From Microthyrium microscopicum (lineage: Eukaryota): 64,000 bases of DNA. Positions within the stretch are counted from its first letter, which is position 1. Each line of letters begins with the position of its first letter. Made by a program: the position numbers and the translations under genes. The notes under the pieces were generated by a model. It searched no databases. It was not told where the DNA came from and was given only the letters and a program-made list of their open reading frames with translations. Positions 5,345-57,398 of the stretch are shown in pieces. The DNA lies in NCBI GenBank assembly GCA_010405405.1, contig MU004231.1:3404401-3468400 (forward strand), read 5' to 3'.

Positions 5345-6999
5345 ACTCACTGCTGAGACTACATCGATGTCTGCTATTTAGAAAACCCAACAGCAAGCTT
5401 GACATAACCAAGCCAGTTCAGCGATTGTAAAATGGATGCACCAGGCCGCCCGAGAGTAAAATGAGGACGACACAGATGGGTAAGTGTCCAGATTAAAGGA
5501 CAGAACGAATAGAGTGCTTCCTTCATGTCTTTTGGTTGCCTTCTTTCGAATCAGGACGTGACAAGGCAACCAAAAATACGACGCGAGAAGCCGTGTTTTT
5601 CCGGCGTTTATGCAACGACCCCCAAACAATTTGATCCCTCGCTTTGACCTTGCAGGACGACCCCATCCTGTTGGACGCTCAATTTCCGGACGTTCGACCG
5701 GGAGAAATCTGATAGGCCCCAGGATTTCAGGAGCAGTGCGTATACCGGGCGAAATACATCTTGCCCAGCCAACTCAGGATGTCTACCTCCTCTAAGCAAT
5801 GGGCTCTGGATCCACGCACTATTAATCGCGACAAGAAGGCGTTCAGATAGGATCAAAAGAGCATGGATTACATGCAGGTATTCTGAGAGAAAAGAGTGTC
5901 TCAAGTCTAAGCGATCTAAGTTGATCGCTGTCATCGTTCTTGGGGGCATCCTATAAACTTCACTTAAGCTGTGCAGGAAAGGCTCACGAGGTTAACCGCG
6001 GACCAATAACCAAGTGGTGCAAGCATCGCTGCTGGCTGCTCTTCCGTGGCTCCCTAGGAATAAATACACGGATATTCCCATGTCCTAAACAGACGCCCTG
6101 CATCAGACCTGGGTCTTTTGGACTTTCAAGATGTGCACTTGATACCTCTCTCAGATAGGGTTAGTGCGGCTCAAAATGACTGGAGGACTTAAGATTGGAA
6201 TTGGTTCATTGGAGCATAAATACCGAAAACTTCTGTTAAAACGCATTATGCTAGCGTGCCTATTTAGATTAGATAAGGCTTTTTAGCTTGCGCTAGAAGG
6301 GGCAAAAAGGGTTAGGAAGAGTATTAATAGGGATAATTCTCTTCTAAATATAGATTACTTACCGTATTAACTTATTTATTAATCCTTATAAAAGCGGATA
6401 GAGATATAAAAAAGGCTTCTAAGAAACTCTTTTTAAGCTAATAACCTTAAGTTCTTAAAGCCTCTATTATAATTATTAGCCTATATAACGTCTTTATTTA
6501 GAGAATATATTATAATATAAGATAGAATTTTAAAAAAGGGAAAGATTAAAAGAATAAAGAAAAATAATTACTTTAGATAGTAATTATAAGTACTTAATCT
6601 TTTCTTATTTTCTAATAAGGACCTTAATTACTTATTAAAATAGTAAGTCTTTCTACTCTATCTTCTTAAAAAATATAAGTAAAGGAGTTTTAGCTTCTAA
6701 TAAGAATACCTACTATAAGAGTCTTTTAGAATACTTTAAATTATTACTAATATCTAAGTTATTTATATTTTAAGACATAGAAAACTCTAGCTATAGTAGT
6801 TATAGATATAATTAGTAGTAAAACTCTTATACTAGTAAAGAGAATAGAGAAGAAAGAATATTAATAGAGTATAAAAGAGTAAATCTTTATGCTTAGCTAG
6901 CAACTTGCTTAATAAATTTAGGCTTCTAGTAAATACCTTTTAGCTAAGTAAAGACTAAGTCTTAGTTACTAAATAGATAAAGATATAGAATAACTCTAC

Positions 7000-8480
7000 T
7001 AACCTACTAATTTTATAAAGATAGCTAGATATTTTAAAATATTTTTATTAACTATTTAATGCTAGTATTACTAATAAATACTTTTAAACTAGGTTCTAAA
7101 TAGAGATAAACGTATTAATTAGACTAAGTAAGAGTTCTTCTCTTCTTTAGAAAAAGCTGTTTATAATATATTTATTTAGAAGATAACTAAAGACTATAGA
7201 GTTTCTATTAATTAGTTTAAATATAAAATTTAATAATAATAAGCTATTCTTTATACTAATTAAATTAGTAATAGCTCCTTTTTAGTAAGGCTAAACCTCT
7301 TAGCTAACTAGTACTAGCTATTCTTTTAATAATATAACATTATCTAGCGCAAAGTAGTAACCTACGTTACTTAGAAAAGGCTTCCTAATTAGAGGAACTA
7401 AATAGCTTCTTTTTACTTTTTTATTAGATAAGTCTAGCATAGTATTATTACTTCCTAAGGAGTTTATTTAAATTTATCTTAACTAAAAGATATTCTATTA
7501 TATAGTCTAATACTAGATTACTTTAAGTATAATATTAATAAAATACCTATAGGCTATAAGTATCTTACTAGCTAGGTTTATACTAAAAAAGGAGTATAAA
7601 TAGTAATCTAAACTACTACTTAGAATAGCTAGGAGAAGAGATAATTTATAGTTATACTATATATCTTTACTAATAGTATATAATAAGTTAAGCCCTTAAT
7701 TATCTTTAAAGAAAAGCTAATAAACGAAACTAGCTAAATTTTTAATAAGGAAGGCAAAAACTATTTAGATAAAGTTATTATTAAGTTTAATCTAACTACC
7801 TAGAGAAATAAGAAGTTAATTCTAGAGTAGCTAAATAAGTAATACTTGCTAATTATTAAAGATTATATTCATTAGTAACTATAACGCTATAAAGAAGCAA
7901 GAGATTCTTCTTTATAGCAAAAGGCTATTCATAATGCCTTTCTTAAGTTTAAAACTCTATTTAATAAATATAATACTTAGGTTTAAGATACTTCTTAACT
8001 AAAAGATTGCCTTATTATAATTAGTATATTTACTATTCTAGCTTACTACTTACTAGAATCTTTCTTAGTTATAGACTACGCTTCTTTTTATAAAGGTCCT
8101 AAAGTTAAGTAATAGTATTAATTTTATTAGACTATTATTTATATTATTCTCCCTAGAATAACTTCCTTATTATAATCTCTAAATATTAGCTATAATAAGC
8201 TTTTTAAGGCTAAAGTTATAGACTTTATAGAAGAATAGGCCTATAATAATAATCTAAATATAGATATTACTAACTAGGAAGTTAGACCTTGCTATATTCT
8301 AATTACCTTTATTATTACTAAAGTAGATAAGATATTATATATAGATAAGAAAAAGATAATTCTTTAGTTTTTTAAATATACTAGTATTTTAATTCTAGCT
8401 AATAGCTTAGGTAATCTTATATAACTAAGTATTAAAGATATTACGCCTAGGGAGCTAGACTTCTTAGACTAGAGAACTAT
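7000..8480 (+). pseudogene. RIP-inactivated Pogo-type DDE_1 transposase (boundaries approximate)
   Basis: After reverting C>T/G>A, one frame reads YNI(DET)P at ~7528, (G)WEKRQ..V.L.IF(ADG)...KPLIIFK at ~7625-7710, LV(M)D.ASF(H)K at ~8065 and I(P)P(G).TSLL(QP)L(DV)SYNK(P)FK at ~8146-8208. Confidence 0.88.
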
Positions 8481-8709
8481 TCTTTCTTATTATTATTAAG
8501 ATGAGGAACCTAAGTAGAATCCTTTTATACTTTATAGTAATTAACTAACTAAAGACTTTTATCTAGAAGATGATAATAATAAGGATACTCTAGTAGATTT
8601 AAGAGCACTAATTCTCTTTGCTAACTAGTAAGTATTATTCTTAGATAATACTAAAGAATCTATCTCTTATAAGAATAGCACCTTAGTAGATCTAATTTCT
8701 TTTAATAAT

Positions 8710-8790
8710 AATAAGCTAGTTAATAAGCCTATTAATAAGCCTATTAAAGAGCCTATTAAAAAGCTCGTTAAAGAGCCTATTAATAAGCCT
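8710..8790 (+). repeat. 12-bp tandem repeat (aataagcctatt/aaagagcctatt), probably a former DEPV/EEPV coding repeat
   Basis: About 6-7 degenerate 12-mers; they appear to lie in the transposase frame. Confidence 0.75.
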
Positions 8791-9135
8791 AATACTAAAC
8801 TATTACTAAATTTCTAGTAGTTATTTACTAATGCTAATATTAACCTTAACTTATTTAATAATCTTTAAGAACTTACCTTTAAAATAGCTATAGCTAAATT
8901 TAGTCTACTTATTACTATTAAGGGAAAAAAATAGAAGAAATAACTAGCAAAATATAAAGTACTAGCAAAATATAAGGTACTAGTAAAAGAGTCTACTACT
9001 TAACTAGCTACGAAAAGGGCTAAAAAGGCTTCTAAAAAATTAATATCTACGTATATATATAAGGGTAGCTAATCCTAACCTTTTATAATTCCTAATGACG
9101 ATATTACTACTTTATCTTAAACTAGTTTTTAGGCT

Positions 9136-9228
9136 TCTCTCTAGTTAGGTCCTCTTTAGCTAAGTTCTCTCTAGCTAAGTTCTCTCTAGCTAGCTCCTCT
9201 CTAGCTAGCTCCTCTTTAACTAGCTCTT
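9136..9228 (+). repeat. 15-bp tandem repeat (tctctctagctaagt/cctctctagctagct)
   Basis: About 6 degenerate 15-mers visible directly. Confidence 0.75.
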
Positions 9229-11383
9229 TACTAGATAAATATATCTTTAGTAGTCCTCCCTTAACTATCTCTTCGTTAGTTAGCTAACTTTTAATTAAAT
9301 ATAGCTTTACCTCTAGTTCTAAATAGCTCTTAGCCCTTATCTTCCTATACTCTATAGAGTTATATACTAATAGTTAGCTCCTAATTCTAGCTAATAATAT
9401 ATTACTCTTTATTATATTAGTAGCTTACTAATAACTAGAACTATACTATAGGTAATAGGTTACCTAAAGGATATTATCCTACCTCGTTTTATTTATAGAG
9501 CTTAAACTAGTTACTTTAAGAAATATACGTAACTAGTTATTAAGCGCTTATTTAATAGGCTAATAATCTTATTCTTAAATCTAACTATAGTAGATAGTAT
9601 AATTATTATTAATAGAACTAGTTAAATAAATTATAATTCTATATTTAATCCTTATATGCTTATTAGTAGTTACTTGCTATAGTAGAAAGTATTTATTATT
9701 AATATAAAATATATATAAAGGAGTATAATTATAGGTTATATCTAGCTAATTTAATTTTATATAAGTTTTTAAGAGCTAGGAATACCTATAAATAATTTTG
9801 CATCTACTTTACCTACTTCTTATAATTAATGCTATTAAATCTACGTTCCTATTAATTAAGTTAGTAAAGAACTAATAATAGAGAGATTAATAAACGTTAA
9901 TAAATCTAAAGCTAAGATTAGTCCTAAAAAGAGCTAGGGAAGGATACTTTAGGAAACCTAGAAAGAGAAAGAAAAGAAGCCTTAGAATTATCTTATAAAG
10001 CTAATCTTAAAAAATATTCTATATAAATTATAAATTTAGTCTAGAACGTAAAGTATCTAAAGTTAGTAAGTTAAAGGAAATTTATTATATAATTATAGGT
10101 ACTTAGTAATTAGCAGAAGAGCTAAAGAACTATATAAGTTTAAACTAATAATTAGTCTAGAAATCCGCCTTAGTACGGAACGTTTATATTAAGATCTAAT
10201 AACTTCTATATTTACTAGTATTAAGATTAGTATTTTACTATTCTTATCTTTTCTCTTTTATTAAGGACATAAATAACGTAAAACGTTAATATTTCTACTT
10301 ACTCCCTTAAAGACCTTAGTATAGGTCTATAATTCTTAGTAATAGTTTATATAAAGTAACGTAAAATATAAAGGAGCCCTTCTTAGTATAATACGTAAAG
10401 TACTACTATCTACTAATTCTTATAATTACTACTTTATATATTTATATTCTTATTCTAAGTTTTATAATTATAACGTTTAGCTGCTAAGGAATATATAATA
10501 TTTAAATACTTAGTATATTATATATGCTTAGATAGACTTATAAATATAAAAAGTATCTACTAGCTTAAAATATTTAATTATATTCTAATATCTAAATTAA
10601 ATAAAAAGCCTTTCTTAATTCTTTCTATTTATAAATATAAGTCCTTAGTATAAGTATAATACTAAAGTATAGACTACCTAATTATTATATATTTATAAAA
10701 GAATTATACTTTAAATTAAGACCTTAAAACTAATATTAACTTAATAAAGACTAATAAATCTATTATAAGTATAATACTAATTAAAGTATAGATCTTTAAC
10801 TTCTTATATTAGTATAATAATAAGTTTATATAAAGCTTTTTAGTATATTACTTTATTTACGTTTTACTTTTAGATTAACGTATTCTATATTACTACTAAA
10901 CTAGTATTATAAGTAGTTTCTAAATACTTAGATAGCCTTAAAAAGATAATAAGTAAGACTAAACTAATCCTAGTTATTACTTTATAAGTATCTAAAGGAA
11001 TTAAGCTAAAGATAGCTATTAATTTTAAATTATATTAAAATATATTTTAAAACTAGCATCTATAGCTATATAGCTATAGATATAGAATTATAGTTACTAA
11101 ATTTACTAGAAATACTAACTTTAATACTTATATTATAGTTCTTTTTATCTTAAACTTACGTTATAAATAAGTAAGAACTAGTAATTTCTATAGCTTTCCT
11201 TTCTAATAACTAAGGCTACTAATATTAGTACTATTTACTAATCCTTTTTATCTATAACGTATATTATAAAGTACTAATAATTAATAAATTCCTAATACTT
11301 TTATCTTTAATAATTATTTACTAAGTATCTAGAAACTAAATAATAAAAAGAAAAAAATAAACTAATATTTATTTCTTTAAGGA

Positions 11384-11602
11384 ATATGTCGCCCCTATAT
11401 TTTATACTTAAAAACTAAGTAAAAATAAACCCTTATAAAATCTTTAGATATGCCGCCCCTATATTTTATACTTAGAAACTAAGTAAAAATAAACCTTTAT
11501 AAAATCTCTAGATATACCGCCTCTATATTTTATACTTAGAAACTAAGTAAAAATAAACCTTTATAAAATCTCTAGATATATCGCTTTTATATTTTATACT
11601 TA
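11384..11602. repeat. 64-bp tandem repeat, ~3.4 copies
   Basis: Unit atatgccgcccctatattttatacttagaaactaagtaaaaataaacctttataaaatctctag starts at 11384, 11448, 11512 and 11576. Confidence 0.92.
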
Positions 11603-12328
11603 AGTAGACTTAATGTAAATAGAAAGTACTAAAATATAATTTTATTTTATCTTTTAAGATAAATAAAATATAACTAATATAGAGTATTTATAATACTTAT
11701 AAGTAGAACTAAACTACTTTTTTCTTAAGTAGTTTTACTACTTACTTAGGTAGATTTAATTATTAAAGATTAATATATTACCTAGTAATCTTATAAAGAA
11801 AGTAGAATAAAATATAGTCCTAATATTAATATTAAGCTAACTAATAAAAGTTAACTAATAAGAAAATAACTTTTAAGAAAAAGTATTTCTTATAAAAATA
11901 TAAATATTTATTTCTAAGCTACCTTAAAAGGGTAAACTATAAAATATATTATATTCTTTACTAAAGACTCTAAAAAAGTTTTAGAAGTAATCTAGTAGCT
12001 AATATTATTAGGCTAGCTAGATAGTAGATTCTTATCTACTTCTTATATAAAGCTTTATAATTATATTAACTATAAGCTATATATAAAATCTAACTTAATA
12101 ATAAACTATTCTAAACTTAGGTCTAGTTTATAGTAACTAGTCTAGCTAATGCTAGATCTAGTAGAAATATATCTAATCTCTAAAAAATTAAGACTTAGTA
12201 AATATATCTCTAAACTATAGCTAAGAATAGAATTTACTTAAGAATTAACTAGAATTACTATAAGAATTAGTAAGTATAATTACTAATCTTATAAAATCCT
12301 AGCTAAATTCTTATCTTTTTTATAAAGT

Positions 12329-13418
12329 AGCTAAAAATATAATCCTTTAAAGCCCTTATAGCTTAGAGATTAGCTACAGCAAAACACCAAAATATGCCCC
12401 TACTACTATATATTCTACTATAAAGTAGCTTAGGACTTAAGAGCCTTAAGTCTATAGAGCTAGACTAATCTAGGACTAGCTTTAAATCTAGCCCTTTATA
12501 TCTAAAGAGCTAGATTATCTTATAGTAGCTACTTAAGCTATTTAAACCCATAGTATTTAATACGCAATATTAAGATCTAAGAATTACTAGATCTTAATAT
12601 TTAGATCACGTGCCGTCATGTGCCCTGTCACGTAAGATCACGTGCCCTATTACGTAAGATTACGTAATCCAGCCCTTTATATTTTTAAAGAGCTAGATTA
12701 TCTTATAATAGCTAAAAATAACGCATTTTTAGATAGTAGCTATTTTAGCTACTAATAGCTAATATTAGCTACTAGTAACTAATATTATAGCTACTATTAG
12801 CCTAAAATCCCCTTTTTAAAAAAGCTAAAAATATAATCCCTTAAAGCCCTTATAGCTTAGGGATTAGCTATAGCAAAATACTAAAATGTACCTCTACTAC
12901 TATATATTCTACTACAAAGTAGCTTAGGACTTAAGAGCCTTAAGTCTATAGAGCTAGACCAATCTAGGACTAGCTTCAAATCTAGCCCTTTATATTTAAA
13001 GAGCTAGATTATCCTACAGTAGCTACTTAAGCTATTTAAATTTATAGTATTTAATACGCAATATTAAGATCTAGGAATTACTAGATCTTAATATTTAGAT
13101 CACGTGCCATGTCACGTGCTAGATCACGTGCTAGATTACGTAATCTAGCGCTTTATATTTTCAAAGACCTAGATTATCCTACAGTAGCTAAAAATAACGC
13201 ATTTTCAGATAGTAGCTATTTTAGCTACTAATAGATAATATTAGCTACTAATAGCTAATATTATTGCTAATTTTAGGGGTGCCTAAAAATCTCTTTCTTA
13301 AAAAGGCTAAAAATACGCATTCTACTAGCCCTTATAGCTTAGGGATTAGCTATAGCGAAATACTAAAATGTGCCCCTACTACTATATATTCCACTATAAA
13401 CTAGCTTAGGAGTTAAGC
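12329..13418. repeat. ~490-bp tandem repeat, ~2.2 copies, with CACGTG clusters
   Basis: Units start at ~12329, 12823 and 13305 (gctaaaaata...agcccttatagcttag.gattagcta). Confidence 0.9.
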
Positions 13419-13883
13419 TATTATCTTTATATACCTTACTACTATATCATTATCCCTTTTAATTGTGCCCTATAGCTATTATTCCTATATTCTACTATAG
13501 TAACTATTTATCTCTTTTGATTATGCCTAATCGTTGTCCCTTTTAATCATACTATATTATTATCTTTTTTAATTATACTATATCGTTATCCCTTTTAATC
13601 GCGCTCTATAGCTATCTCTTTTGTAGGGTACGCTATAGGTACCTTTATAGGCACCTTTATAGGGGCCCCTATAGCGTGCTTTACTAAAGGGCCTATAGGT
13701 ACCCCTATAGCGTGCTCTACTAAAGGGCCCTAAAATAAGCCCCTATAGGGGCATGCTGTAGCTACTAACAGAGGGTGCAAAAGGGACAAATAATCACCAA
13801 TAGGGGCAGCGCCCGCTAAATTTAGTGGGACCGCGACCCAAATAGGCACGCTAGCATAATGCGTTTCAACAGAAGTTTTCGGT

Positions 13884-14929
13884 AGTGGTGTAGCTAGCCA
13901 TTATGAGACAGCAGTCGGTTATCCAACCAGTCAAATTCCACAACAGGATGACAACGAGGACAACGAGGGCGACGACGATGAAGATGAAGATGAAGACGAT
14001 GACAACGATGAAGATGAAGACGACGCAACAGTGAACCAAATGACAGCGCAGATGAGCGGTATGACTATTCCTACAGCTATCTCCAACAGCCTCATTCACG
14101 GATCGCAGACACAACAACAACAGGCCCTACAGGTGGTAGAAGCACGTCTAGACGCCTTATCAGTTGACAGCGACTCATCAACTGGCCAATACATACCTCA
14201 GGCTCTTGTACAGCGTCTTCCTCGAAATCAAGCTGGTATGCTTAAGCTTGCTGTTATCTACGCAGAGTTGGGTTACTGACAATACAGTAAAGTGTACCGA
14301 ACTGTCAGACGTGAGAACCAGAAGAACTTCTTTAAACCTGGTCGTGTGCGTGAGCTCTAATCGCCGACGACTTTAAGCTGACTAATGAGATAGGTCTTCC
14401 GGACCCTGTGGTTTGAAGCTCGCGGCCAGAATTTGAATGGAAACCAGGCCTTCACTGAACAAGATCTACGCCAATTAAACCTTGGATTCGCAGAGATGAG
14501 ACTCTTCATCGTCATTAAGCGAAGAAAAGAAAACTCGCTCTGCATGTAAGCTGCCTCGCCAGTCGAACTGGCTGATAATTTTCAACAATGGTTATGAAAC
14601 CTAGCTAATCAGCTCCCATCAGACCTATGCACACATATGGAGGAAGAGGATGTTCGGCCAAACCACCTGCAATCAAGGCTATGCACTCTCAAGCATTCAC
14701 GGGAAGCCGTCCACCAGCACTGCTCAACGGAGAAGCTAGCCCGCCGTTGAAGCGTCCAATACGTATCGTACCTTCGGCCGCAACCGACGCTCTCAAACCA
14801 ACCACACGAATCAATTATGGGGCGTATCATCAAGTACAGCACAACATCCCAGTCTGCCAAATAGGCAAAGTCCACGAAGATTTCATTGCGCTTGTGAAGG
14901 CTTATGTGGTCGAAGTCAACGCCTTGTGA
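13884..14929 (+). CDS. DUF6590-domain protein, 4 exons; 5' end abuts or is interrupted by the Pogo element
   Basis: Predicted exons 13884-14235, 14293-14345, 14394-14545 and 14623-14929 join to give an acidic tract, then NFFKPGRVFRTLWFEARG...MRLFIVIKR...SLCIPMHTYGGRG...KRPIRIV...RINYGAYHQVQHNIPVCQIGKV, the DUF6590 pattern. Intron 1 needs an AAG acceptor; the first in-frame ATG is at 14040. Confidence 0.8.
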
Positions 14930-17901: not shown

Positions 17902-20389
17902 TTAATCCATATCCTCATCATCGTCTTCGTCCATTTCTGGATCACTGTCTTCCAAGCTATCCATAGCTTCTTTGATAAGATTTGTTGCCTGCAAACAATT
18001 AGTGATGGTCCAATGTGATCCATGTAGAAACACATACCTTTGGATCCAAATTCATGGCTATCGTGTAGTTTTTAAGAGCTGCTGGAATATCACCCAGCGT
18101 CTTGTTTACTTTACCCAAAAGGAAATGCACATTGGCATCATTTGGAGCCTTGATCTTGAGAGCTTCCAATTCGTCCATTGCCTCCTGTGGTCGCCGAAGA
18201 ATAAGTAAGACTCGTGCTTTCGCAAATCTCGCCTTTGCCGACAGAGGATCCAATTCGCATGCATCGTTGTAATATTCCAAAGCTTTTAGTCGTCGTTTGG
18301 TTTTCTCTGGTACCAAACCATTGCAGGTCTTCTCCAGCACCAGGCCCATGCATACCTTGAGGACAGGATTTGTTGGGTTAATCTTGGATGCATTGATGTA
18401 GTGCTCGCGTGCGATTTCATACTTGCCGAGCTTCTCAAACACTTGTCCTAGGCCATACCAGCCATTGTAGTGTCGGTTGTCTGCTGAGATGGCATTTCGG
18501 AATGACATGAGAGCTTTATCAAATTCTTCATTGGCGACGTGTTCGTGTCCAGCCAGCGTGAAGGCATACGCAAACTTGGGATCAAGTTGTGTGGCGCGTT
18601 TGAAGCATTTTACTGCTTGATCATGTTCTCCCTGCAATGAAAACGCATTTCCTAGGACGCACCAGGCCTGGGGAGACAAGCGATCAACCTCGATGAGTTC
18701 ATGCGACAGGAACGATAAGTCTACATCTTTCTTCAGATGCCACAAAACTGTGGAATAAAGCTCCATATCTTCCGTCCGTGATGGCACATCTTGTCGGATC
18801 TTGCTAAACATCTTTTCAGCCTCCGCGTAATTGGAGTTTTCGAAGTGGGCTCGAGCTACTTGAGCTTGCACCCATGGTGTCTCCCGAAACTCTGGTTTCA
18901 GTTTTGCAAAGTACGCCAAAGCAACCTGGCAGTCGTAACGCGATAGTGCGAGATACGCTTGACCAATTTTGCTATATTGTTCGATTAAAAAGACCAATGA
19001 TTCCTTTTGCGGCGAGATATCTGGTAGCTGTGGAGGTTTGCGCTGAATTTCTTTGATGCTGCCGATCGTATTAGCAACCGAGAGAGAACGGACTTCCTTA
19101 ATGTCACGATCGCTGGGTTCCAATGGTTTTCGGTTCCCGCTAACGACTCGTCCTACAGTCGAAGTGGTTTTGTTTTTGGCACTAATTGTTTTGGCTCGCC
19201 GAATCTCCCGTTTGTCTCTCGACTCTGGGTCGCGTGAAACTGCGGCAACCATTCGTTGTGTAGTAGGGATTATTCGATTTCGAAGAAGTCGGTCACTGCG
19301 GCGTGCTGGAGCTCCGGGTGGTTCTGATGAAGTTGCGCTGCTTGGTGGAGGTTGGCCAGAAACAGTGCGCTTATGGCTCACGGGTATCGACGTAGGTCTA
19401 GACGGTGGTTCTGACGATTCCCCGTGGTCAGACTGCTTCGATTTACTTCTAGTTGTTATTGATCGCATCTTTGGGATATCCCCAGGATTGTCCTGCTGAT
19501 AACTGTACATTGGCCGAGATTGTCGCGAGGGCGCATGGGGAGCATCAGTATCATATGGTGCATCGTCCATGGTTATGTCCTCGTCACCAAGTGGACTATT
19601 TGGCGTCGGTGTTTTCCAGTCCAGAGACAAACTAAGATCGGACCCTATTCCCGAGTCGGCATAAACGCCATTAATCTGTCGAGGCTTGGGATTGAAGGGA
19701 TCATGGCCAGGAGTGGCCATACCATTGAGAGCTCCATTGACATGAGGTTGAAGAGGTAGATTCTGAGAGTTCAGATCCATAAGTGCCGAAGGGTACATTT
19801 GAGGATCCAAAGTAGCAAGAATATCCGAGGTTAGTTTGAAAAGATTCTGGGCCTTGACTTTCGCGCCTGTGTTACAGAGCTCTGTAAAGGATTCCCAGAG
19901 GAAGGGATTTATTCTCAAAGCCTCGACGAAATATTCCACGGCTTTGGTAGTGTCACCATAGGAAGACCACAGCTTTCCGAGGAGGAAGTTTACGGCAGAT
20001 GCATCAGGAGTGTGCCGTCTCGAGTCGGAGTTTCGATCTGTCTGAAACTGTGGTTTTCGAGCTGCCCAGAGCCCACGCGTACGGTCAAGTGCAGTGGCGC
20101 CTTCACCAAAGCGTTGCAACGCGAGACACGACTGCGCAAAAATATATGCACATCCCAAATGACCCCCTTGACCGCCTTTTAATTTACTGTAGTCGTATGC
20201 AGCTTTGTACTGGCCCATACGGTAGTGGCAAAGGGCGATGAGATGTGCCGAGTCAGGATTTCGAGGTTCGACACCATGCAGTCGACCAGCATGGAAGAGG
20301 GCAGTCTGGAGGAGCTCATTGTCGAGGGAATAGTAGACAAGGTTCCGCAGCTGAGCCGCTATGTAGGGATTGTCTGTAGCAGTGGGCAT
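17902..20389 (-). CDS. CDC27: Anaphase-promoting complex TPR subunit 3 (Cdc27/Nuc2/BimA)
   Basis: N-terminal QLRNLVYYSLDN; TPR array with YSTVLWHLK, SPQAWCVLGNAFSLQ, YAFTLAGHEHV; intron 17989-18037; last exon ends at TAA 17902. Confidence 0.95.
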
Positions 20390-21175
20390 GAGGGCGAGTA
20401 GACGATGAAGAGTAGAAATGTTGTGATGAGTAGTAGGCGGGGTTAAAGGGCGTCGGAGAAGGAGAAGGTGGGGGAAAGTCGTAGGGTGGTGGCTAGATAC
20501 AAGGAAGCATCAGAGGAGACGAGTATTGATCAATCTAAAGGTGTTGGGTCGGGTTGTGTCGGTTGCTGAAAGACATGAAGGTAGTGGCGCTGGACAATAA
20601 CAACACAGGAAGGGCCAAAATAACGCGCAGATGCAAGGCGCAAATGCAGTTCCAAGATGTAAATGGGTATTAGGATAGGTGTTGTAGGAAGTGAAAGATA
20701 TAAAGAACTGCCTTAGGAATGAGGGCAGATTATTAGGATCACAATGGGCGTGTTGTGACTTTGGTGGTTGTATTGAAGTTGGTGGCATAGACATGGAGTT
20801 GTGAAGGTGAGAACCACTCAAAGCAAGGATCATGATGGAAAGCGGAGGTTGGACCCTGGCCCTGGTTGGTCAACCCATCCGCGCCTGCCGCCCGCTAAAA
20901 TGAAATCCAATGTGTTCGTTCTCGTTATAATGCGCTCTCATATCGCCACGTTCTAAATTCCTAATATTATTATCTTATTTTCATTCCATCATATATGCAT
21001 CATAGTATAGCCCAAGAACAGGAGGCTGAGAAACAAAATGGAAAGGTGATGTGGGACCAATCCGTACCAGTAGCTTAGAATCACACCGAATGTTCATCAA
21101 ACGAGGGACAAGTTGACATGTCACATAGCCGCGACTTCTTTCTATATCGTGGCAAGTATGAAGCAGTAAACAGTC

Positions 21176-22075
21176 CTAGAGCTTAGCCTTCTCGGCCGTT
21201 TTCTCCTTAACCCACGCTCGATCAATCATCCAATTCCTCAACAGCGCCCATCCTCCCGACGTGATTCCAACCGGCGGACATATCAGGCACAACGTCGTCC
21301 ACCACCACGGACTCCGCGACCGTAGCTCCTCCATAACCTTATCCACGCCTTTCTTCAACTCCTCCCGCTCGCCATCATTCCACACCACCACCCCCCGTCC
21401 AGCGCCACGAGCCAGCGCACGCTCTGCCTTCTCCCGTACATCGCCTTGACTGAGTACGCGATTCTTCGCGTCTTCTTCGCTCAAATGCGCATCGCGGGCA
21501 CGTAATCGCGCCATTTGGATAGCGGGATCCTTTACTGCGACGACAAGCGCTGTGCCGCAAGAATAGTGCAATGGCCCCTCGAACAGGAGTGGGATGTCCA
21601 GCACCACGGCCCAGTGGCCCGTCATATAGTAATATAACTGCATCTCCCATTAGCAATTCACATCCCAAAAATGATCGTGACAACATACCACCTGTTTCCA
21701 CATAGCTCTCCTCACAGCAGGATGCACAATCCCATTCAACACCTTCCGCGCCTCCACCGTATCCACTCCACCCCCAAACACCGCCCGCCCAAGCGCCGGC
21801 CGATTCAACGGCCGTCCTTTGCCATTTGGCCCCATTTCCTGGGGTGCATCGTGGGTCCCGCGGGAGAGCGGATCATCTGCTGGGAGGAGTAGGTCTGGTG
21901 TGGTTGGACCAAAGTGGCGTACTATTGCTGCGTAGCCTGGTGTGCCGGGCTCGACGACTTCGCGGGCCAGTACGTCGGCGTCGATTATGGGGAGGTTGTA
22001 TGGGGCTGAGCGGAGGATGTTGGAGACGGTGGATTTTCCGGTGGCGATGGAGCCTGTTAGGCCTAGGAGGAGCAT
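21176..22075 (-). CDS. CAB5: Dephospho-CoA kinase (CoaE/Cab5), 2 exons
   Basis: GLTGSIATGKST P-loop, IIDAD.LAREVV, LNGIVHPAV, VLDIPLLFE; intron 21638-21688. Confidence 0.94.
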
Positions 22076-23045
22076 TTTTATTTTTCCCTATGTATTATCT
22101 TCAAGCTCTTGTGTTTTATTTGCTATGTTTGTAGCTTTTCGAGTGGTTGTCGATGGTTTTGAGGTAATGGTGTTGAGTTGAGGTGGTTTGATGTTGTTGG
22201 GATCTCGCAACTTCACTTCCGGGGGACTGACCGAGGCTGAAAATCCATCGACCTTCGATGGTGGAACTAATTGAGTTTTATCCAACACGGCGTTGTTGAT
22301 TTTTTATTGAAAATTTCCGGAAACCTACTGGAAGGTGAGCGGCGGCTTGTTAAATTTCGAATTTTGACCCCATCTGAAGTGTTGTGCTTGAGTAAAGCCT
22401 CAGTGACCTCCAATTGAGCGATGCTTGAACCAGAGTTTCAAGGTATCCGGTTTGAACAATTTTCAAAACTGTGGTATGTTTGATGTGAATAACGAATTCA
22501 ATTTTGATTCTTCTCGGGGTTTGATCGGGCCATACCTAGACAGTTTTCCTACACAGGTACTGCTCTTCGCTGTATCTCTCAAAGCAAGAAATGTGCGAGC
22601 TGTTCTCCATACAGGATAGGACGGTATGCAATTTTGTTCATAGTTACTGCCGTATTGAGATAGAGATTGTACTTCCGATATTCAGACCATGAGCGTTTCT
22701 CCCTAAGTAAGAGATGGCTATTTTCAAAATCTCAGGCTGAGACTGCCATAAATAGAAGTCAGCCGATTGAGTTTGCGCTTTACAGTAACTTCGATGGATG
22801 TCTTCAGATTCAAAACAACCTGGGAAAATGAGACATTCATGCTCTGAGGAAAGGGTTCACTTGCCAACCTACAATCAGAAATACTTCTCCTTCGTCTATA
22901 TGAAGCATCGAATCGAACTCTTTTCATAACACTCCATCTTGGCCGTCAAAGTCGATGGAAATGAGCTGAACCGCTTCTAGTCATCATTTGTCAATACGTT
23001 TTCAATAACAATTGCTTCCTGCTTCTATTGCCGTCAAACTCCATA

Positions 23046-23989
23046 ATGCCGTTCCTTGTGAAGGGCCACGAGCCGAGCTGGCATTTGCATGAATATGCCG
23101 ATTGGTATGAATGGATTGACTACATTCAGCGACGTGCCGTCAATATGGGTGTTTGGGAATTCGTCAAACCCGAAGGTGATGAACTACCGCCTGAAATGCC
23201 TGAGCTGCCAACTGGACCTGGGTATAGAATGAGTCTACATGACCAGATACTCTTGTACAATGCCGAGAAGCAAAAGTACGTTCTCAAGAAATAAAGACTG
23301 CTTTAGTAGCTTGGAATTGGCAATCAAATCATCGTAGTTCCAAGACAACAACTTTTTTCGCCAGGTTTCGATTCCCTAGAAAACTTGAGCTAACAGAAGA
23401 TAGTTACCTGGAAGCCAAAAACTCAATCACATCTCTTGTTCAACTTATCAACGACTCGATCCACGGCAACTTCTATCCCTACATTCACGGAGTCTTCGAC
23501 TGCCGAGAGATCCTCAAGATTCTCACAGAGAAAATGCATCCTATAACCTTCGAGGGGTGCTTCCCTGAATGTCACACATTGCTGGCTAGAGAAATGAGAG
23601 CACTTCTGCATACATTGAGCGATGGTCCTAAAGGTCAAGGACAGGACGAGAACGAAGTGCAGCTTTGGCTTCTGGGATGGCGAAAGATTATACAATTTGC
23701 ATTTGAGTTGCATGAGCAAGAATATGATGATAGCGGTGACTGGCAAGACTGGAACGAAGACTCGCTGGCGGAAGTGTTCCACAACGCGTCAAAGGTCTCA
23801 AATCCTACATTTCATCAGCTCATGGAGAAAAGCATGGATGGCAATCCCTTCGGAGAAGGATTGGATTCGGATATACCTTATCCTAGGTGCTCATTGGCTT
23901 GGTGCATCAACTTCTACTTGGTATGCTTGAAGCAGGAGAAGACAGATGCTTGGAAGAATATTCGTGATGCGCGCGGATCTAGCCACTGA
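23046..23989 (+). CDS. Copia Gag-like protein, paralog 1 (271 aa; exons 23046-23275, 23404-23989)
   Basis: GTACGT donor 23276, GCTAAC branch site, TAG acceptor 23401-23403; spliced ORF is intact and aligns end to end with paralog 2. Confidence 0.8.
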
Positions 23990-25029
23990 CCAAGATGGGC
24001 ACTGGGCACAGTATACAGCATCATTTACATGCCTCTACTGCCTATCATCGAGGGAGGATGATTTCAGGTATGGCGAATCAGAGCGAATAGAAGATCCCAA
24101 GATTCCTATATGATGCGCTGGGACAGAAAACTTGAGCACCTTCACTTTCCAATGTGGTTGTTGCTGTCAATTTTGGGAAAGCATTGTGGTCAGATAGAAA
24201 ATTGGAAAGCAATATAAAAATATACACAAAAATCCAAGGTCTTCGAGCAAACATAAGTCGAGAGATTTCTGTCTGGTAGGAAACAACCATGTCACTACGA
24301 CATTGATGGTGGTAACTACGAGCATTTCACGGTATTTAGCAGAAAGTTTAGTGACCTGGGTCGAGCCTGAGGGAAGAAGTGATCAACTATCTCGGTTTAT
24401 GTTGCGTCAGGCCAATCAAGGAATGCTCAGGAAGCCGACCAGATACAGCAAATGCAGTTCTAAAAGTGTGGTTTTGCTACCAATGGAAAGAGTCAAGGCT
24501 TCCATCCATCATAATCCATGGCATCAGCCCATTAGAGTACCTATCTAATTGGGGAGGTCCAACCAGTGCTGTCACATAAGAGGAGAAAGTCACTTTCCAG
24601 AGCGGGAGCGAATCTTTGCACACAACAAGCCATCATTCTTCAAAGAGCTATACCTCACCGCTCGAGGAGTAACTGAACGCTTGAATGTATACTTCTCAGA
24701 GACAGCCCCATATACTTCCGAGGAACTGAGGAACCAGGCTTTGAGAATTGGAGTTACTGCCCGCTGAGAGGGTAGACTCGCTTCTTGTCTTCGTCTATAT
24801 AAACCATAGGCTCGACCTTCTCACACCATCACATCTCCAGCACAACCACAAAGCTAATCTCAGAAGGCGAAACATCTCCAAGTAAGGCTTTCTTTGAACC
24901 CAGCCCAGATACTGCGATCCTCCTTCTCAGCATTCTTGCTTATTTTCTTCCAGTTTCCTTCGGGTCTGTCCTGATTCTCCGTCGCAATATTGGTCAACCT
25001 TGACACTGTCGGTTAACACACTGTTCAAA

Positions 25030-25957
25030 ATGCCACTCCCTGTTAGTAGTGGCAAACCGACCTGGTTCCTACACGACTATTTCCATTGGCAGGACTGGTT
25101 TGATTACATCAAGCGACGTGCCATCAGTCTTGAAGTTTGGGATTATGTTGATCCAGCTGGCAAGCTTGAGCCTCCTAGTATGCCCGCTGAACCTACTGGA
25201 TCCCTTACCAGTACTAGCTTGCCCAACGAGGTACTGCTCTACAACATTAAGCGAGACAGGTATGTTTCACCAACTTACTTACTTCCAACTTCCCCCATGA
25301 GATATACGCTTCACCAAGATGTGCGAAATGTCATTCTCGCAACGCGCCCGTCCGGACCTTGAAGTCAGCGTCGTTGAATCTTTTTGTAACATGCGCTCTT
25401 TCTATAGGTACTGAAGTCAGCTAACAGACTGTAGCTACATCAAGACTCAAAGCGCGATCACATCGCTTATCCAGCTCATCAACGATTCAATCCATGAGAG
25501 CTACTTTGACTGCATCAAAGAACGCTTCAGCTGCCGAGAAATGCTGTGGAGCTTGGGATCAGAATGGCGGTTTTCCTACATGAACTGCGGCATGACTATA
25601 TTTGACCTGTGTAATGATCTTCGGACCTCGCTCAAGGATGGCCCCAACCTCGAACGCCTCAGAAAGGGAGGTGCTGAAGAACAGCAAGAACTTCAGCGGT
25701 GGCTTAGTGGCTGGCGAAGAGTCGCACAGATCGAGAACGCTTCTCTCTGGCTTATGGATGAGCATGAAATGGCTCGTGAGTTTCATCAAGGATCCGAAGC
25801 TTCCAACCCTGCATTCTACGGGATGGCTCAGAACCTTTGGGCTGGAACTGCAGAAAACCAGCCATGGCATGACGTCTCTGACCTCCAAACAATTTCTTGG
25901 TGCATTCAGAAGTATGCAATATTCTACAAACTCAATGCTGAGCATGAAGCGGAATGA
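25030..25957 (+). CDS. Copia Gag-like protein, paralog 2 (250 aa; exons 25030-25259, 25435-25957)
   Basis: GTATGT donor 25260, GCTAAC branch site, TAG acceptor 25432-25434; same 230-nt exon 1 and phase-2 intron as paralog 1; shared ITSL.QLINDSIH, CRE, DGP, WL.GWR, SNP.F, WCI. Confidence 0.8.
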
Positions 25958-26454
25958 TTCACAGGAATCCGAGACTGCTTATCTCAAGGGGACTGATGAC
26001 GAACAAAAAAGGTCTTTGATCAAAGACTGATTTTGCTCTGATATTCGAGAGAGGCCGATATCGTGGACTTGATCAAGGCGTGGTCTTCGAAGTATTAGTG
26101 GAAACCCAAAAATCAATAATAAAAAGTAGCCACAAAATGATGCCTTCAAAAGATCGCTACGCTTGTTGAATCAAGCTGTTTCCAGAACGAACCACATATC
26201 TAAAGGATATTATCAGGGGCCACGTATCCAAATCGTCTCAAGTAATAGAGGAACAAGATTACTGATGGTAGTCGATTGAGACATACATTTATGGTGCAGC
26301 CAAGACATTGATTCGTTATCCTCGTCGAGCCAATCTATATTCCTTCGTGGAACTTGGCTATGGGCGCTTTTTGCCCTTCTAATATATCGATGGAATCCAA
26401 GACCACAGCTGTACCCGGAACAAGCCATCTTCAACCATTTCATAGCTTATTGTT

Positions 26455-27431
<977 letters not shown>

Positions 27432-28416
27432 TTGAGCTGATATCGCGGGGAGAAGGCGATCAATGGAAGGGAGAGAATTCGTCGATTGAAAACTATCAGC
27501 GTTGATGAAAATGCGCTTGATGTTGTTGTCAAGTGGTCGTGTGGTTGTGGTTTGATGGAGTGAGGTTCAAAATGGTTGCAAGGATCAAGCTGTGGAGGTT
27601 GGGCAACCCTTGATCCTTGACGACCACGATACGGTTTAAGTTACCATGGCGGCTGGAACCTCTCCCATCATAATTTGTGTACCTACTCGCTCATTTTTTG
27701 AAGGACTGGTATAACTTGTTCTCCCCCTCATTTTCGAGTCCGTCAGCTTAGAGCTCGAGAAGTGTACTTGGTGATTTGGCATCTCATGCCTTTCCCACCC
27801 CAGCAGCCTTCGGATTCATCAACGACTTCCCAATCAGCACCCCCTCGAGTCCTCGCTCAACACGTAGGCTGGCTCTTCATGAACTGAGCAAATTGACAAG
27901 TCGAGTTGACCCAGAGTAATCGAGATAAGAACGGCGGAACAAATCGAATAGCCTTTTGCCGAAAATCTATTCTATTAACTCCAAAATCAGACCCACGAGA
28001 TACACCATGCCAACGAGGTCTTGCTTTTCATGAAAGCTTGGTGCTAATTTAACAGCTTACAGTGCGAAATAATACTCGCGGCCAGACCCTTTTAGCCGAT
28101 ACATAAGAATATAATCATGTTTGAGAAAACATAACACCATCTGGAAAAAGTCTCGCTCTGGTGCCAAGGGAAGTTTACAAGCAAGCTTTGGTGTTGAGCT
28201 CTTTAATGCCGTAATCGGTCTTCGTGATACCTTCATCCACTTCCCAGATCTCAGCTTCAAGCTAAATATCAGTATCGCTAGCGTCCACTACTCGTAGATT
28301 CAAGGAGTTACACATATTAGATATTGCTCGAGGCTTAAATCGAGTTTTGGACCCCTGATATATGACCAGTGAGGGGCTTATTCGCGCACCAAACATCAAC
28401 GCACCTTTCAAAAGTC

Positions 28417-29081
28417 ATGGCTCAAGAGCTTGGAGTTTCCATACTACTACTGGGAGATTCGGATGTTGGGAAAAGCTCATTTCTAGCGTAGGTTCTTCCA
28501 ACGAGACAAACACTTTCTGCGCTTTGCTAATGACGTCTCTCAGGCGGCTTACACTTGGAGCACAAGAAAACAATGATGGATTACCGCCCTATGAACTACC
28601 AAGACTACTTGATTCCAATCAACCGTTCGAGTTCAACATGCACATTCGCGGTAATAGGCACAGATTCTATTTCTATGACACCTCATCGCCAACAAACTAC
28701 AGCCTGATACAACCAGACGTTGTCATCTTATGTTACGACATATCAAATAGAAGCTCGCTTGAATCACTGGGACAGAGATGGCGACATGAATTACAGACGC
28801 ATTTCAATTACGACGAAGCACTTCCCGTTATCGTTCTCGGATTGAAGCGGGATTTGCGGAGAGAGTGGACACAGGAAGAACGCGAAAAGTTGAAAGGGGC
28901 TACTATTATGCCGCAGGAAGGACTGTTGATGGCTCAGCAGATGAGATGTGATATGTATGTGGAGTGTAGTGCCATGACGGGGGAGTTGTTCAAAGAAGCG
29001 ATTGAAGATATCGCAAAAACTGCAGGGAAAAAGTGGTCTGAAGGCGGAGGCAGGACTGAAGGCGGTTGTATCGTGATGTAA
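28417..29081 (+). CDS. Atypical Rho-like small GTPase with CAAX box (2 exons)
   Basis: Exon 1 MAQELGVSILLLGDSDVGKSSFL (G1); intron 28488-28543; FYDTSSP (G3), GLKRDLR (G4), YVECSA (G5); C-terminal CIVM. Confidence 0.88.
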
Positions 29082-29350
29082 TGATATTACTTGGCTTACT
29101 CAGTAATCTGAGGCTATTGATGCTTTTGAGTTGTTATTGAGGGTGTGTTGTGGATCTGTCAATAAACGAGGCTCAAAACCCAACAAGAGACCTTCTCAAC
29201 TCAATTTACAAGTGACCAAAATCTAGTCAATAAGCTATTGAGAGAGATTGCTGCACAAAACGACCTCCTTCGACAACATGCCTCGACATCTCCTATTCCT
29301 TTTCACCACACAACCCGCATCGTTCCAGACATACACCTGACCAAGACAAC

Positions 29351-30136
29351 ATGGCATCGAAGTCTTCAAATACACAGCCTTCCACACCACTGCCTGCAGA
29401 GCCAGAGAACAGATCCAATGTCCAAGATTTGCCCGAGTATTGGAATTACCCAAACTACTACCGGGGATCAGAACAGCCGATTACGCCAGTGATACACTAT
29501 CCACGGCGAGGAGGAGTTCACCTATCTTGGCCACACTATCTTGGTCTCTGCTTCGCCATATTCTGCATGGGTTTTGTTTTGACTCTTTGGACTGCCGTAG
29601 CTCTACACCGTACCGAACCATCCTTTCAGCTAGCCACCAACTACGTTCCTCAATCCGCGCAAGGCCAGGCCGATCATCACGAAACACCTCCGCTTTGGGA
29701 ATTCAAACCCAACTTTGTGATCGAAAAGGCCCATACAGACTTCTTCACGGCAACAGTTACAGATGTGGAGACTGTGACGATTATGATCGATCCAAACGAG
29801 TCTACGTCAAGCTTTGTGCCGTCCACAACATTGATGGTTTCCGTGGAGTCGCTTTCTTCTTCTCCCACCGTCGACTCAAAAAGTCCCTTAACCTCATCCG
29901 ATACGAACTCGGGCAGCATGACAAGCTCTTCGAGCTCCAGTCCAAGCAGTCAAACCCCATCATCAAGCTTTCGTACAAGCATATCCACGAGTTCGTCGAG
30001 TCTAACGTTGACGAGCACCACAGCACCGGCTGACTCTACTGTGACGGCCAGCGTGACTAAATGGTCGATGACTACAATGCAGCCGTCCGTAAGGCCCATC
30101 AAGCCATCGACGAGACATTTTGGCATGCCCTCATGA
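29351..30136 (+). CDS. Hypothetical single-pass membrane protein with Ser/Thr-rich C-terminal region
   Basis: 261-aa ORF; hydrophobic segment YLGLCFAIFCMGFVLTLWTAVAL followed by an S/T-rich tail. Confidence 0.7.
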   Translation: MASKSSNTQPSTPLPAEPENRSNVQDLPEYWNYPNYYRGSEQPITPVIHYPRRGGVHLSWPHYLGLCFAIFCMGFVLTLWTAVALHRTEPSFQLATNYVPQSAQGQADHHETPPLWEFKPNFVIEKAHTDFFTATVTDVETVTIMIDPNESTSSFVPSTTLMVSVESLSSSPTVDSKSPLTSSDTNSGSMTSSSSSSPSSQTPSSSFRTSISTSSSSLTLTSTTAPADSTVTASVTKWSMTTMQPSVRPIKPSTRHFGMPS

Positions 30137-30254
30137 GCTGTCTAAAGACATGTTTTGAGAAGGCAGGTGTATTGGTACTGATATATGGGTCCAAGCTGTA
30201 GTAGGAAATGGTTTTTGCATAGCAATGGAAGAAAACTGCAACGATGAATAAATT

Positions 30255-30722
30255 TCAGTCGGAATTTGTGCTCGGATTGGCCATTTCCTCGGTAGTATTT
30301 AGTGCATCAGGCAGAATGAAGACCGTCTTGTCATCTCGACCTGCCTGTGAGCCAGGATTCGTCTGCGTATTGTCCAAGTGATATCCGATAACTAGATCAC
30401 ATCGTGTGCAGCGGCGCTGATATCGAGGCTCGAAACCGTCGGACCGTCGGACGACGATGGGCTTTTTATCGACGAGTGTGTTGAGCAACACAGCTCCATC
30501 GGCGGGTGATGTACTGGTGCCGTTGTCTTGTTCTTGATCGGAGGGTAGGTTCTGATGGGATCGTTGCAGGTCTTTGAGGGGAGTGAGAGGGACAATGTAG
30601 GCTTTGTCTAGTCCTTCTCTGCCGCGGCGCATGTTGCTGTCTAGAGGTTTGGCGGTCGCGAGGAGGAGCTGGGTGCATAAGCAGTGATATACCACGACTG
30701 GTGAGGTTGTAGATTCGTTCAT
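30255..30722 (-). CDS. STEEP1/CXorf56 (UPF0428) family protein
   Basis: VYHCLC..LLL, R...LDKAYI, VVRRSDGFE.RY.RRC..C.L.IGY match the family pattern; probable start ATG 30722. Confidence 0.75.
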   Translation of the reverse strand: MNESTTSPVVVYHCLCTQLLLATAKPLDSNMRRGREGLDKAYIVPLTPLKDLQRSHQNLPSDQEQDNGTSTSPADGAVLLNTLVDKKPIVVRRSDGFEPRYQRRCTRCDLVIGYHLDNTQTNPGSQAGRDDKTVFILPDALNTTEEMANPSTNSD

Positions 30723-30953
30723 TTGTGATAATTTGAGGCCAGGTTGTAATGAGCAGTAGGTTGTAAATGTTGTAGGTGAAAAGGTAAGCTTTCTGACTGG
30801 TCGTAGAATTTTTGATAGCTGGAGGATGAAGTGTCGATCGAACATTTTTTGGATCGCGATCTAGCGTCAAAGGGGCACAAGGATGACGCTTTCCCTTCCA
30901 AACATTCCCAAACACAACTCCAACTTCATCCTATCTTTCTCCATAACACAAGA

Positions 30954-31747
30954 ATGCCTCTGTCTATTACGAAGCCGATATTGTTCGGCTCATTCACCGT
31001 CACATCTCAGGTTCGCTTATGCCTTTCAACTGGGCGACAAACTATATGACGCGCTCCCAACAATTAAGATGTCTCCCATGGCGCTGCTTAATAAAAAGAT
31101 GCATCAATTCCCATCGTATTCGATCGGCATTCGACCATTTTGCGCAATCAAGGGGAAGCAAGGCACCCGATATTGAAGCGCAGCAAATGGTAGACAATAA
31201 TACTTGATGGGAGCGTGCCAGTTATTTTGTCGTCCAGTTGGTCTTTGTCACCAATATACTGCTGTTAACAACTACATAGGTCTTCCATCTTACAAGTCAC
31301 TCTTACGCATTCGTCAACCTTAAACCTATACTTCCCGGTCATGTGCTTGTCTCGCCCATTCGACGGGTCCCTCGGCTCCATGATCTCACAGCGGCCGAAG
31401 TCAGCGACTTGTTCCAAGAAGTACAACGCGTTGGTCGCATGGTCGAACGTGTTTTCCATGCATCAGCATTGAACATTGCTATTCAAGATGGTTCCGACGC
31501 CGGACAGAGCGTACCGCATGTCCATGCACATATCCTTCCTCGGAAGCCCGCTGATTTACCAAACACTGACGATATATACAAAGAACTGGATGGTCCTGCG
31601 GGAGATATTGGCCAGCATTTGGAGCATGCCCGTAAAGGCGCATTTCCAACAGTAGATGCCGACGAAGCTCGCCATCCTAGGACAGCAGAAGAGATGAATA
31701 AAGAAGCCGAGTGGCTGACTAAAGAAATGGAAAAAGAAGCATCCTAA
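30954..31747 (+). CDS. HNT2: Bis(5'-adenosyl)-triphosphatase, HIT family (FHIT/Hnt2)
   Basis: Exon 1 MPLSITKPILFGSFTVTSQ; intron 31011-31279; FVNLKPILPGHVLV; QDG.DAGQSVPHVHAHILPR histidine triad. Confidence 0.94.
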
Positions 31748-56200: not shown

Positions 56201-56500
56201 TTTAATAAAGTTAGATATTTAAAAACCTTCTAATTTAACTATAAGACTATAGAAACAAAGAGTACATCTAACTCTAACTTCTCTATGCTTAGTAATATTA
56301 ATAAGAAGTAGTTCTCTAATAAATAGCTTATTAAAAAGAGTATAAGCTTTAGAATTTCTATTATTTAATTAAAAGTACTATTTATTATACTTATAATAAG
56401 TATAACTAACATTACTAGAGATATTAAACGTACTATCTTTAGGTACTATAGAATTAGCATTTAATACTTAGCTAGCTCCTAGCATATTATTACTATCTAT
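53300..56500 (-). pseudogene. RIP-inactivated hAT transposase (boundaries approximate), split by a MITE
   Basis: Minus strand: BED finger CTLC..SNFIKHY (~56190-56270), ALDA(W)TS (~55785), DNASNN (~55580), (C..H)IINL (~55480), DNNTR(W)NS (~55175), KLEEYY/ILDPKYK (~53860-53960), dimerisation domain LAKKYL.I(PA)T(S)...F...LKN(W) (~53395-53535). Confidence 0.92.
54026..54897. mobile_element. 872-bp MITE or non-autonomous Tc1-mariner-type element nested in the hAT transposase
   Basis: Perfect 20-bp TIR catcgtgaaaaaattatcat at 54026-54045 and 54878-54897; TA flanks at 54024-54025 and 54898-54899; excision restores the hAT frame. Confidence 0.92.
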
Positions 56501-57177: not shown

Positions 57178-57398
57178 AAAAAGTAAAAAAGTTAAAAAAT
57201 ATAAATACTATATAGTAAGTATAAAAATAAGATTTAGGGTAGTAAAAAAAAGTAGACTAGCTATAAATAATATAGAGAGTAATAGCTATAGATAGTAGTT
57301 TAGCTTATAAAAAAGAGGAAATATCTAAAAAACTAAGAATTCTAAGTAGAATTCGCCTCTATAAGTATATACATAACGCTAAATTAATATATACTAAT

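Follow-up and report, generated by a model that had tools for sequence, protein, structure and literature searches.

A 64,000-nt stretch of the Microthyrium microscopicum genome (contig MU004231.1, positions 3,404,401 to 3,468,400 of the forward strand), which we refer to as the window, contains two intron-bearing genes in tandem at positions 23046 to 25957. Their products resemble the capsid (CA) portion of the Gag protein of Ty1/Copia retrotransposons. We consider it rather probable that gene 1 and gene 2 are host-type genes derived from the CA portion of a Copia gag, that they are old, and that they have been kept under purifying selection. The data support the Copia-Gag origin and the gene-like state of both genes, and domestication of the pair is likely, resting on one genome.

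Two tandem paralogs share a phase 2 intron

The features of the pair are as follows.

23046..23275, forward strand: gene 1 exon 1, 230 nt (76 codons plus 2 bases)
23276..23403, forward strand: gene 1 putative intron, 128 nt, phase 2, GTACGT...GCTAACAG...TAG
23404..23989, forward strand: gene 1 exon 2, 194 codons plus stop
25030..25259, forward strand: gene 2 exon 1, 230 nt
25260..25434, forward strand: gene 2 putative intron, 175 nt, phase 2, GTATGT...GCTAACAG...TAG
25435..25957, forward strand: gene 2 exon 2, 173 codons plus stop
22890..22919, forward strand: TATA-like box of gene 1, CTTCGTCTATATGAAGCAT..., 156 nt before the ATG
24789..24818, forward strand: TATA-like box of gene 2, CTTCGTCTATATAAACCAT..., 241 nt before the ATG

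As read from the DNA, the spliced products comprise 271 aa (76 + 1 + 194) for gene 1 and 250 aa (76 + 1 + 173) for gene 2. Without splicing, both frames run into a premature stop. Both introns have the form GTAYGT...CTAAC...TAG, with GCTAACAG in each and the TAG approximately ten bases downstream, and they interrupt one and the same aligned codon between its second and third bases. The two genes are 45% identical in exon 1 (E value, 4e-26) and 29% identical in exon 2 (E value, 2e-23), which by sequence puts their paralogy far beyond chance. When the gene pieces were compared by tblastn with the whole window, only these two loci were found, all other matches having E values of >1. The TATA-like boxes form a direct-repeat family of their own (80% identity over 30 nt) and may serve as promoter elements. 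Both genes would be expressed and spliced and would serve the host.

The exon 1 product of gene 1 carries the N-terminal Gag/CA motif DW..W...A....VW..V.P..PP..P..P, which is matched by the N termini of Copia polyproteins. Its exon 2 spans the remaining CA-like region, and the stop codon precedes the site at which mobile relatives have a zinc knuckle.

The public model of gene 1 differs slightly from ours. NCBI protein BT63DRAFT_467241 (P0005) is identical to gene 1 exon 2 but has 284 aa, with 13 extra residues because an upstream in-frame acceptor (CAG at 23362-23364) was used. The insert has no counterpart in gene 2. We favor the 271-aa model because the branch site and the TAG are conserved in both paralogs, because a third paralog (described below) also lacks the insert, and because the insert was modeled with low confidence (pLDDT, <50 in the AlphaFold2 model). 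In the protein libraries, gene 2 is represented only by two unnamed, unspliced open reading frame (ORF) pieces, P0006 (138 aa) and P0007 (110 aa); it seems to be absent from the public annotation.

Behind gene 2, approximately 45 nt past its stop codon, there is an imperfect 21-nt palindrome (26001-26038; 81% complementary, with overlapping arms). An AATAAA is found farther downstream, at 26118.

Both proteins are homologous to Copia Gag

With an HMMER profile built from both paralogs, a search of 1.84 billion representative proteins retrieved 52 proteins at an E value of ≤0.001. Three of them were the window's own proteins, and P0008 matched the profile over its full length (E value, 2.5e-15). 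The remaining hits covered profile positions of approximately 14 to 140, corresponding to the N-terminal ~125 positions. ESM Atlas cluster labels suggested that the hits P0009 to P0056 are fungal.

Fifty hits were scanned with Pfam. Four of them (P0019, P0037, P0041, and P0054) are Copia-type polyproteins of 713 to 920 aa, in which Pol_BBD, gag_pre-integrs, rve, RVT_2, or SH3_retrovirus domains lie downstream of the matched N terminus, that is, of Gag. Among the 1.84 billion proteins, these polyproteins were detected with E values from 5.8e-06 to 8.7e-04. P0034 gave a weak Retrotran_gag_2 match below the cutoff (E value, 0.0075), the sole one among the 50 relatives; 41 hits were without any family, and four had unrelated weak or spurious matches. 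Furthermore, a CxCGxxH....C knuckle follows the aligned region in P0014, P0017, P0026, and P0053, and one mid-sized knuckle-bearing relative runs on into a DSG motif. Many of the library relatives P0013 to P0049 are only 95 to 166 aa long and end near profile positions 110 to 140. It seems that fungal Copia gag copies are often disrupted near this position, either by a break or by an intron or frameshift that splits them. P0009, a MADF protein whose match (profile positions 257 to 289) fell into four stretches, was regarded as a spurious hit.

For a 45-row alignment, P0009, P0018, and P0051 were excluded. The window proteins aligned with the Gags along their entire length. Nearly invariant columns, numbered as in P0005, were L14, W20, W23, A31, W37, P42, P52, and P55, and the DW..W...A....VW..V.P motif, the I..L...I..SI helix, WL.GW, and F....P.F aligned column for column with the Copia Gags. 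In line with this, an hhalign comparison of the Microthyrium trio (gene 1, gene 2, and P0008) with eight knuckle- or pol-bearing Gags, which were chosen among the hits to the query profile itself, gave a probability of 99.2% and an E value of 1.1e-19 over 218 columns. It spanned query positions 11 to 249 and template positions 8 to 236, and its conserved-residue columns agreed with those of the 45-row alignment. The C-terminal half of this match had played no part in the selection of the eight Gags. Judged from these sequence comparisons, we conclude that the likeness to Copia Gag is real homology.

The predicted fold ranks a Copia capsid first

With the 45-row alignment, AlphaFold2 produced an all-helical model with a mean predicted local distance difference test value (pLDDT) of 82.7 and a predicted template modeling score (pTM) of 0.60; the model obtained from a single sequence was unusable (pLDDT, 35.6). 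In a Foldseek search of the PDB, the top-ranked match was 8vvw_A, the capsid of Drosophila Copia (probability, 0.75; E value, 0.57; template modeling scores, 0.30/0.42), and all other matches had probabilities of ≤0.15. In BFVD, ranks 1, 4, and 7 were caulimovirid coat proteins or polyproteins, and rank 2 was nameless. Among the ESM Atlas structure neighbors, 5 of 10 rows carried Retrotran_gag_2 or DUF4219, which we treat as leads only, since the named-cluster scores were all <0.9. A complex prediction with two copies of P0005, performed without an alignment, gave a score of 0.01 (mark, 0.32) and spoke neither for nor against self-association.

The other parts of a retrotransposon are missing

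No direct repeat of >30 nt that could represent long terminal repeats (LTRs) was detected within 18000-31000. Six-frame searches of 22088-26454 revealed neither a CCHC knuckle (C..C...H....C) nor a protease motif (D[ST]G[AS]). Furthermore, when five Copia polyproteins or fragments were compared by tblastn with the window, only exon 1 of both genes was matched, and thus no pol was found. In the protein libraries, only three family members from M. microscopicum were present. Since the intron breaks the gag frame, it would hardly be compatible with an element that still replicates.

The base composition of the pair is that of ordinary genes. The G+C contents of 0.46 (gene 1) and 0.485 (gene 2) are comparable to those of the adjoining genes, and the composite index of repeat-induced point mutation (RIP) was -1.03 and -0.84, respectively, indicating no RIP.

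Much of this had been proposed in an earlier note on the window, which was made from the DNA letters without database searches. Its description of two paralogs of 271 and 250 aa with a 230-nt first exon and a phase 2 intron at the same codon was confirmed from the DNA, and normal G+C content and lack of RIP were borne out by the values given above. The analysis also agreed with its placement of the pair between the housekeeping genes CAB5 and CFIm25 (Pfam CoaE and NUDIX_2 in the flanks), and the absence of LTRs, zinc knuckle, protease, and pol that it had reported held in the repeat, six-frame motif, and tblastn searches.

The paralogs are old, and their frames have stayed open

Between gene 1 and gene 2, the proportion of differing synonymous sites (pS) was 0.743, which is saturated, and that of nonsynonymous sites (pN) was 0.415. 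For exon 1, identities at the first, second, and third codon positions were 0.59/0.72/0.41, and for exon 2 they were 0.54/0.59/0.35, a pattern typical of coding constraint. The introns shared 66 of 128 aligned bases, and the 300-nt flanks were 0.49 and 0.41 identical, compared with a random-pair mean of 0.42. We also simulated neutral evolution at 0.3 substitutions per site. In 20,000 runs, the frame remained open in 4 (gene 1) and 14 (gene 2). Saturated synonymous sites together with two open frames argue for long purifying selection. The near-random flanks, the saturated pS, and the simulation thus point to an old duplication, with frames probably kept by selection.

The third paralog, P0008, is BT63DRAFT_419341, which is encoded on another scaffold of the M. 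microscopicum genome. In a quick maximum likelihood tree of 48 rows, from which P0009, P0018, and P0051 were also excluded and in which the library rows were trimmed to 300 residues, gene 1 and gene 2 were sisters with a Shimodaira-Hasegawa-like approximate likelihood ratio test (SH-aLRT) value of 96. The pair grouped with P0008 (SH-aLRT, 87), and the polyproteins were scattered.

Proposed origin and mode of action

The family would descend from the CA-encoding part of gag in a Ty1/Copia retrotransposon, an ancestor that would have shed its LTRs, the nucleocapsid (NC) zinc knuckle, the protease, and pol. The stand-alone gag would then have acquired its own promoter and a phase 2 spliceosomal intron, after which the intron-bearing gene would have duplicated in place. 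A third, more distant paralog is located on another scaffold. Purifying selection may have kept all copies as open frames over a very long time. A similar course (capture, intron gain, duplication, and retention) had been outlined in the earlier note, and it fits the missing LTR, pol, and knuckle, the conserved splice signals, the TATA-like box, and the saturated pS with open frames. The motif order from which the same note had recognized a Copia Gag is likewise upheld by the matches to polyprotein N termini, the hhalign probability, and the column-wise alignment of the motifs.

Since the proteins lack an RNA-binding knuckle and retain the core residues of Copia CA, they would act through CA-CA contacts. 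The simplest role would be coassembly with the Gag of related Copia elements, which would poison them in the manner of Ty1 p22 or Fv1. In its fullest form, this idea would make the duplicating, capsid-only Copia Gag family a host trans-dominant blocker of Copia particle assembly that acts beside RIP and whose paralogs diverged in conflict with their targets. We regard this extended version as improbable.

Several results weigh against a domesticated Copia capsid. In Pfam, where the curated Gag models Retrotran_gag_2 (PF14223), Retrotran_gag_3, DUF4219, and UBN2 were tested, none of the four exon pieces and neither of the two full-length proteins (P0005 and P0008) matched any model at an E value of ≤10; the comparison with Retrotran_gag_2 and UBN2, which the earlier note had proposed as a check, therefore found nothing. 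Searches of PDB sequence profiles with 3-row and 45-row queries yielded no Gag, and the best unrelated weak matches were XIAP (E value, 0.033) and designed binders (E value, 0.12). Word-based searches of 5.8 billion proteins, in which each exon 2 and the trio profile served as queries, returned only proteins of the same genome. The structural check proposed in the same note, AlphaFold plus Foldseek, was not positive either: the Copia capsid was the top hit, but 8vvw_A was below significance, with no PDB match at an E value of ≤0.001 and every BFVD match at ≥0.24. The choice of the hhalign templates mentioned above belongs here as well.

Other points of this kind concern selection and host function. 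Because pS is saturated, the ratio of nonsynonymous to synonymous substitution rates (dN/dS) is not usable. In the protein libraries searched, there was no relative outside M. microscopicum closer than an E value of 1e-8, and no ortholog. Co-option is usually judged by conservation across species, and the family is known here from one genome. For gene 2, the databases searched contain no named spliced protein. Finally, a restriction-factor mechanism would follow by analogy with Ty1 p22 and Fv1.

Alternative explanations

If the genes were immobilized Copia leftovers (solo-gag or nonautonomous copies) without host function, their frames would be open owing to recent element-level selection or luck. 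This would be in keeping with three copies in one genome and no orthologs in the protein searches, with a gene 2 outside the public annotation, with the many library relatives that are short gag-only fragments, and with a window that itself shows repeat invasion, now RIP-degraded. However, neither LTRs nor pol remnants were detected in the tested ranges, and in both copies the same gag codon is interrupted by a frame-breaking intron whose branch site and acceptor are conserved. The intron counts against leftovers because an autonomous element could not tolerate it in its genomic RNA. Moreover, the copies are in tandem with a TATA-like box common to both, the frames are open despite saturated pS, which under neutrality was expected in only 4 and 14 of 20,000 cases, and there is no RIP, although RIP targets duplicated DNA. 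Altogether, we consider leftovers unlikely.

The homology and selection data would serve equally well for co-opted CA genes with a role other than transposon control, such as the capsid-like or scaffold assembly of Arc and PEG10. The CA region is full length and not truncated, and for the related fungal genes Crtg12 and Crtg13, likewise, no connection with transposon control is known (PMC8321522). Such a role is harder to combine with the absence of an RNA-binding zinc knuckle, and rapid duplication and divergence in one lineage would better fit conflict-driven genes; we judge it doubtful, at the level of the trans-dominant blocker.

That the proteins are unrelated to Gag and form a lineage-specific helical family resembling it by chance or composition is very improbable: the blank Pfam result, the structural matches below significance, and the unrelated weak matches of the PDB profile searches would agree with it, but a Copia polyprotein was found at an E value of 5.8e-06 among 1.84 billion proteins, the hhalign match reached 99.2% over 218 columns, reverse tblastn with five Copia polyproteins or fragments matched nothing in the 64 kb but these two genes, and the one PDB structure that stood out was a Copia capsid.

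Comparison with known Gag-derived genes

Ty1 p22/p18, Fv1, and enJS56A1 are restriction factors derived from Gag; like the window proteins, they have no enzymatic parts and could target the capsids of related elements. Of these, p22 is a Gag that lacks its N-terminal part and is produced from within the element itself, and Fv1 and enJS56A1 derive from mammalian retroviruses; in these respects, the window genes differ. Arc, dArc, and PEG10/RTL are host genes that originated from retrotransposon capsid domains, and self-assembly has been shown for them. They are of Ty3/Gypsy descent and occur in animals, whereas the relatives of the window genes are Copia-type (Pol_BBD, gag_pre-integrs, and RVT_2). 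Arc, dArc, and PEG10/RTL are listed as Crtg2-5 in the survey of Wang and Han (2021; PMC8321522).

According to this survey, three gag co-options are known in fungi, two of them from Copia and both in Dothideomycetes, namely, Crtg12 and Crtg13. Four Copia-capsid host-gene events are reported in eukaryotes; two of them are fungal, and none is reported to have a known function. M. microscopicum is within the genome list of PMC8321522, no Crtg gene is listed there for the species, and the screen demanded conservation above the family level. Crtg12 and Crtg13 resemble the window genes in their occurrence in Dothideomycetes and their Copia gag source, and also in being stand-alone, gag-only genes of similar size with ordinary neighbors and without LTR or pol (PMC8321522). 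The loci are different, however: Crtg13 is flanked by PTZ00376 and ACPS and Crtg12 lies beside AbiEii (PMC8321522, Table S3), while the window genes are located between CoaE and CFIm25. According to PMC8321522, Crtg12 and Crtg13 carry Retrotran_gag_2 or Retrotran_gag_3, the fungal genes described occur as single copies, and Crtg13 is conserved across orders. The window genes, in contrast, match no Pfam model, form a tandem pair with a third paralog, and have so far been found in one species. An intron in the gag-derived region is described among the fungal genes only for Crtg14 (PMC8321522), and the window genes have one. Since Copia-gag co-option in Dothideomycetes has already been published at other loci, the kind is known, and the window locus is a separate and more divergent candidate, which has been duplicated in tandem and has an intron within gag. 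No publication on these Microthyrium genes was found in a literature search.

The mobile fungal Copia Gags (P0019, P0037, P0041, and P0054) share approximately 220 homologous residues with the window proteins, in the same motif order and with the same core residues. Beyond this region, the mobile forms go on to a CCHC knuckle, a protease, an integrase, and a reverse transcriptase. The window genes, in contrast, terminate ahead of the knuckle position, are interrupted by an intron, and lack LTRs. In the Gag of Drosophila Copia, the N-terminal CA domain comprises residues 1 to 90 and the C-terminal CA domain residues 91 to 186, after which comes a disordered NC that contains a zinc finger, as described in a preprint (bioRxiv 10.1101/2023.12.20.572708). 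The fungal CA region is approximately 50 residues longer than this Drosophila capsid, whose structure 8vvw was the top-ranked fold match of the model, below significance; the NC is absent from the window proteins.

Host genes from Copia capsids are few, and the window locus would be a further, separate candidate. Several of its features are experimental assets, namely, a tandem pair with a third paralog, an intron that marks the loss of mobility, and a genome in which ordinary repeats were destroyed by RIP. If the proteins bind or poison Copia capsids, fungi would use capsid-based restriction besides RIP; if they self-assemble, they would be a fungal counterpart of the Arc-like genes. The window genes escape Pfam-based screens, and surveys built on Gag domain models probably undercount such genes.

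Genomic neighborhood

The genes around the pair are listed below.

21176..22087, reverse strand: CoaE/CAB5, dephospho-CoA kinase, upstream neighbor (Pfam CoaE; E values, 3.6e-25 and 5.1e-09 for two ORF pieces)
26455..27023, reverse strand: NUDIX_2/CFIm25, downstream neighbor (Pfam NUDIX_2; E values, 1.2e-28 and 6.1e-14 for two ORF pieces)
17999-20509, reverse strand: APC3/Cdc27-type TPR protein, further upstream
28359-29081, forward strand: Ras-family GTPase piece
30255-30860, reverse strand: STEEP1-domain protein

The further neighbors (TPR, Ras-family, and STEEP1) are ordinary genes. Two AT-rich blocks, at approximately 6001-14000 and 51001-61000, have G+C contents of 0.11 to 0.38 and composite indices of +0.6 to +1.7, a strong RIP-like dinucleotide bias. 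From their composition, they are probably old, RIP-degraded repeats, and they have no similarity to one another. As a possible seat of the parent Copia element they were rejected, since no polyprotein match was found there at an E value of ≤0.01. The second block includes an assembly gap of 920 N (59609-60528), because of which ORFs near these positions seem to be open in all six frames.

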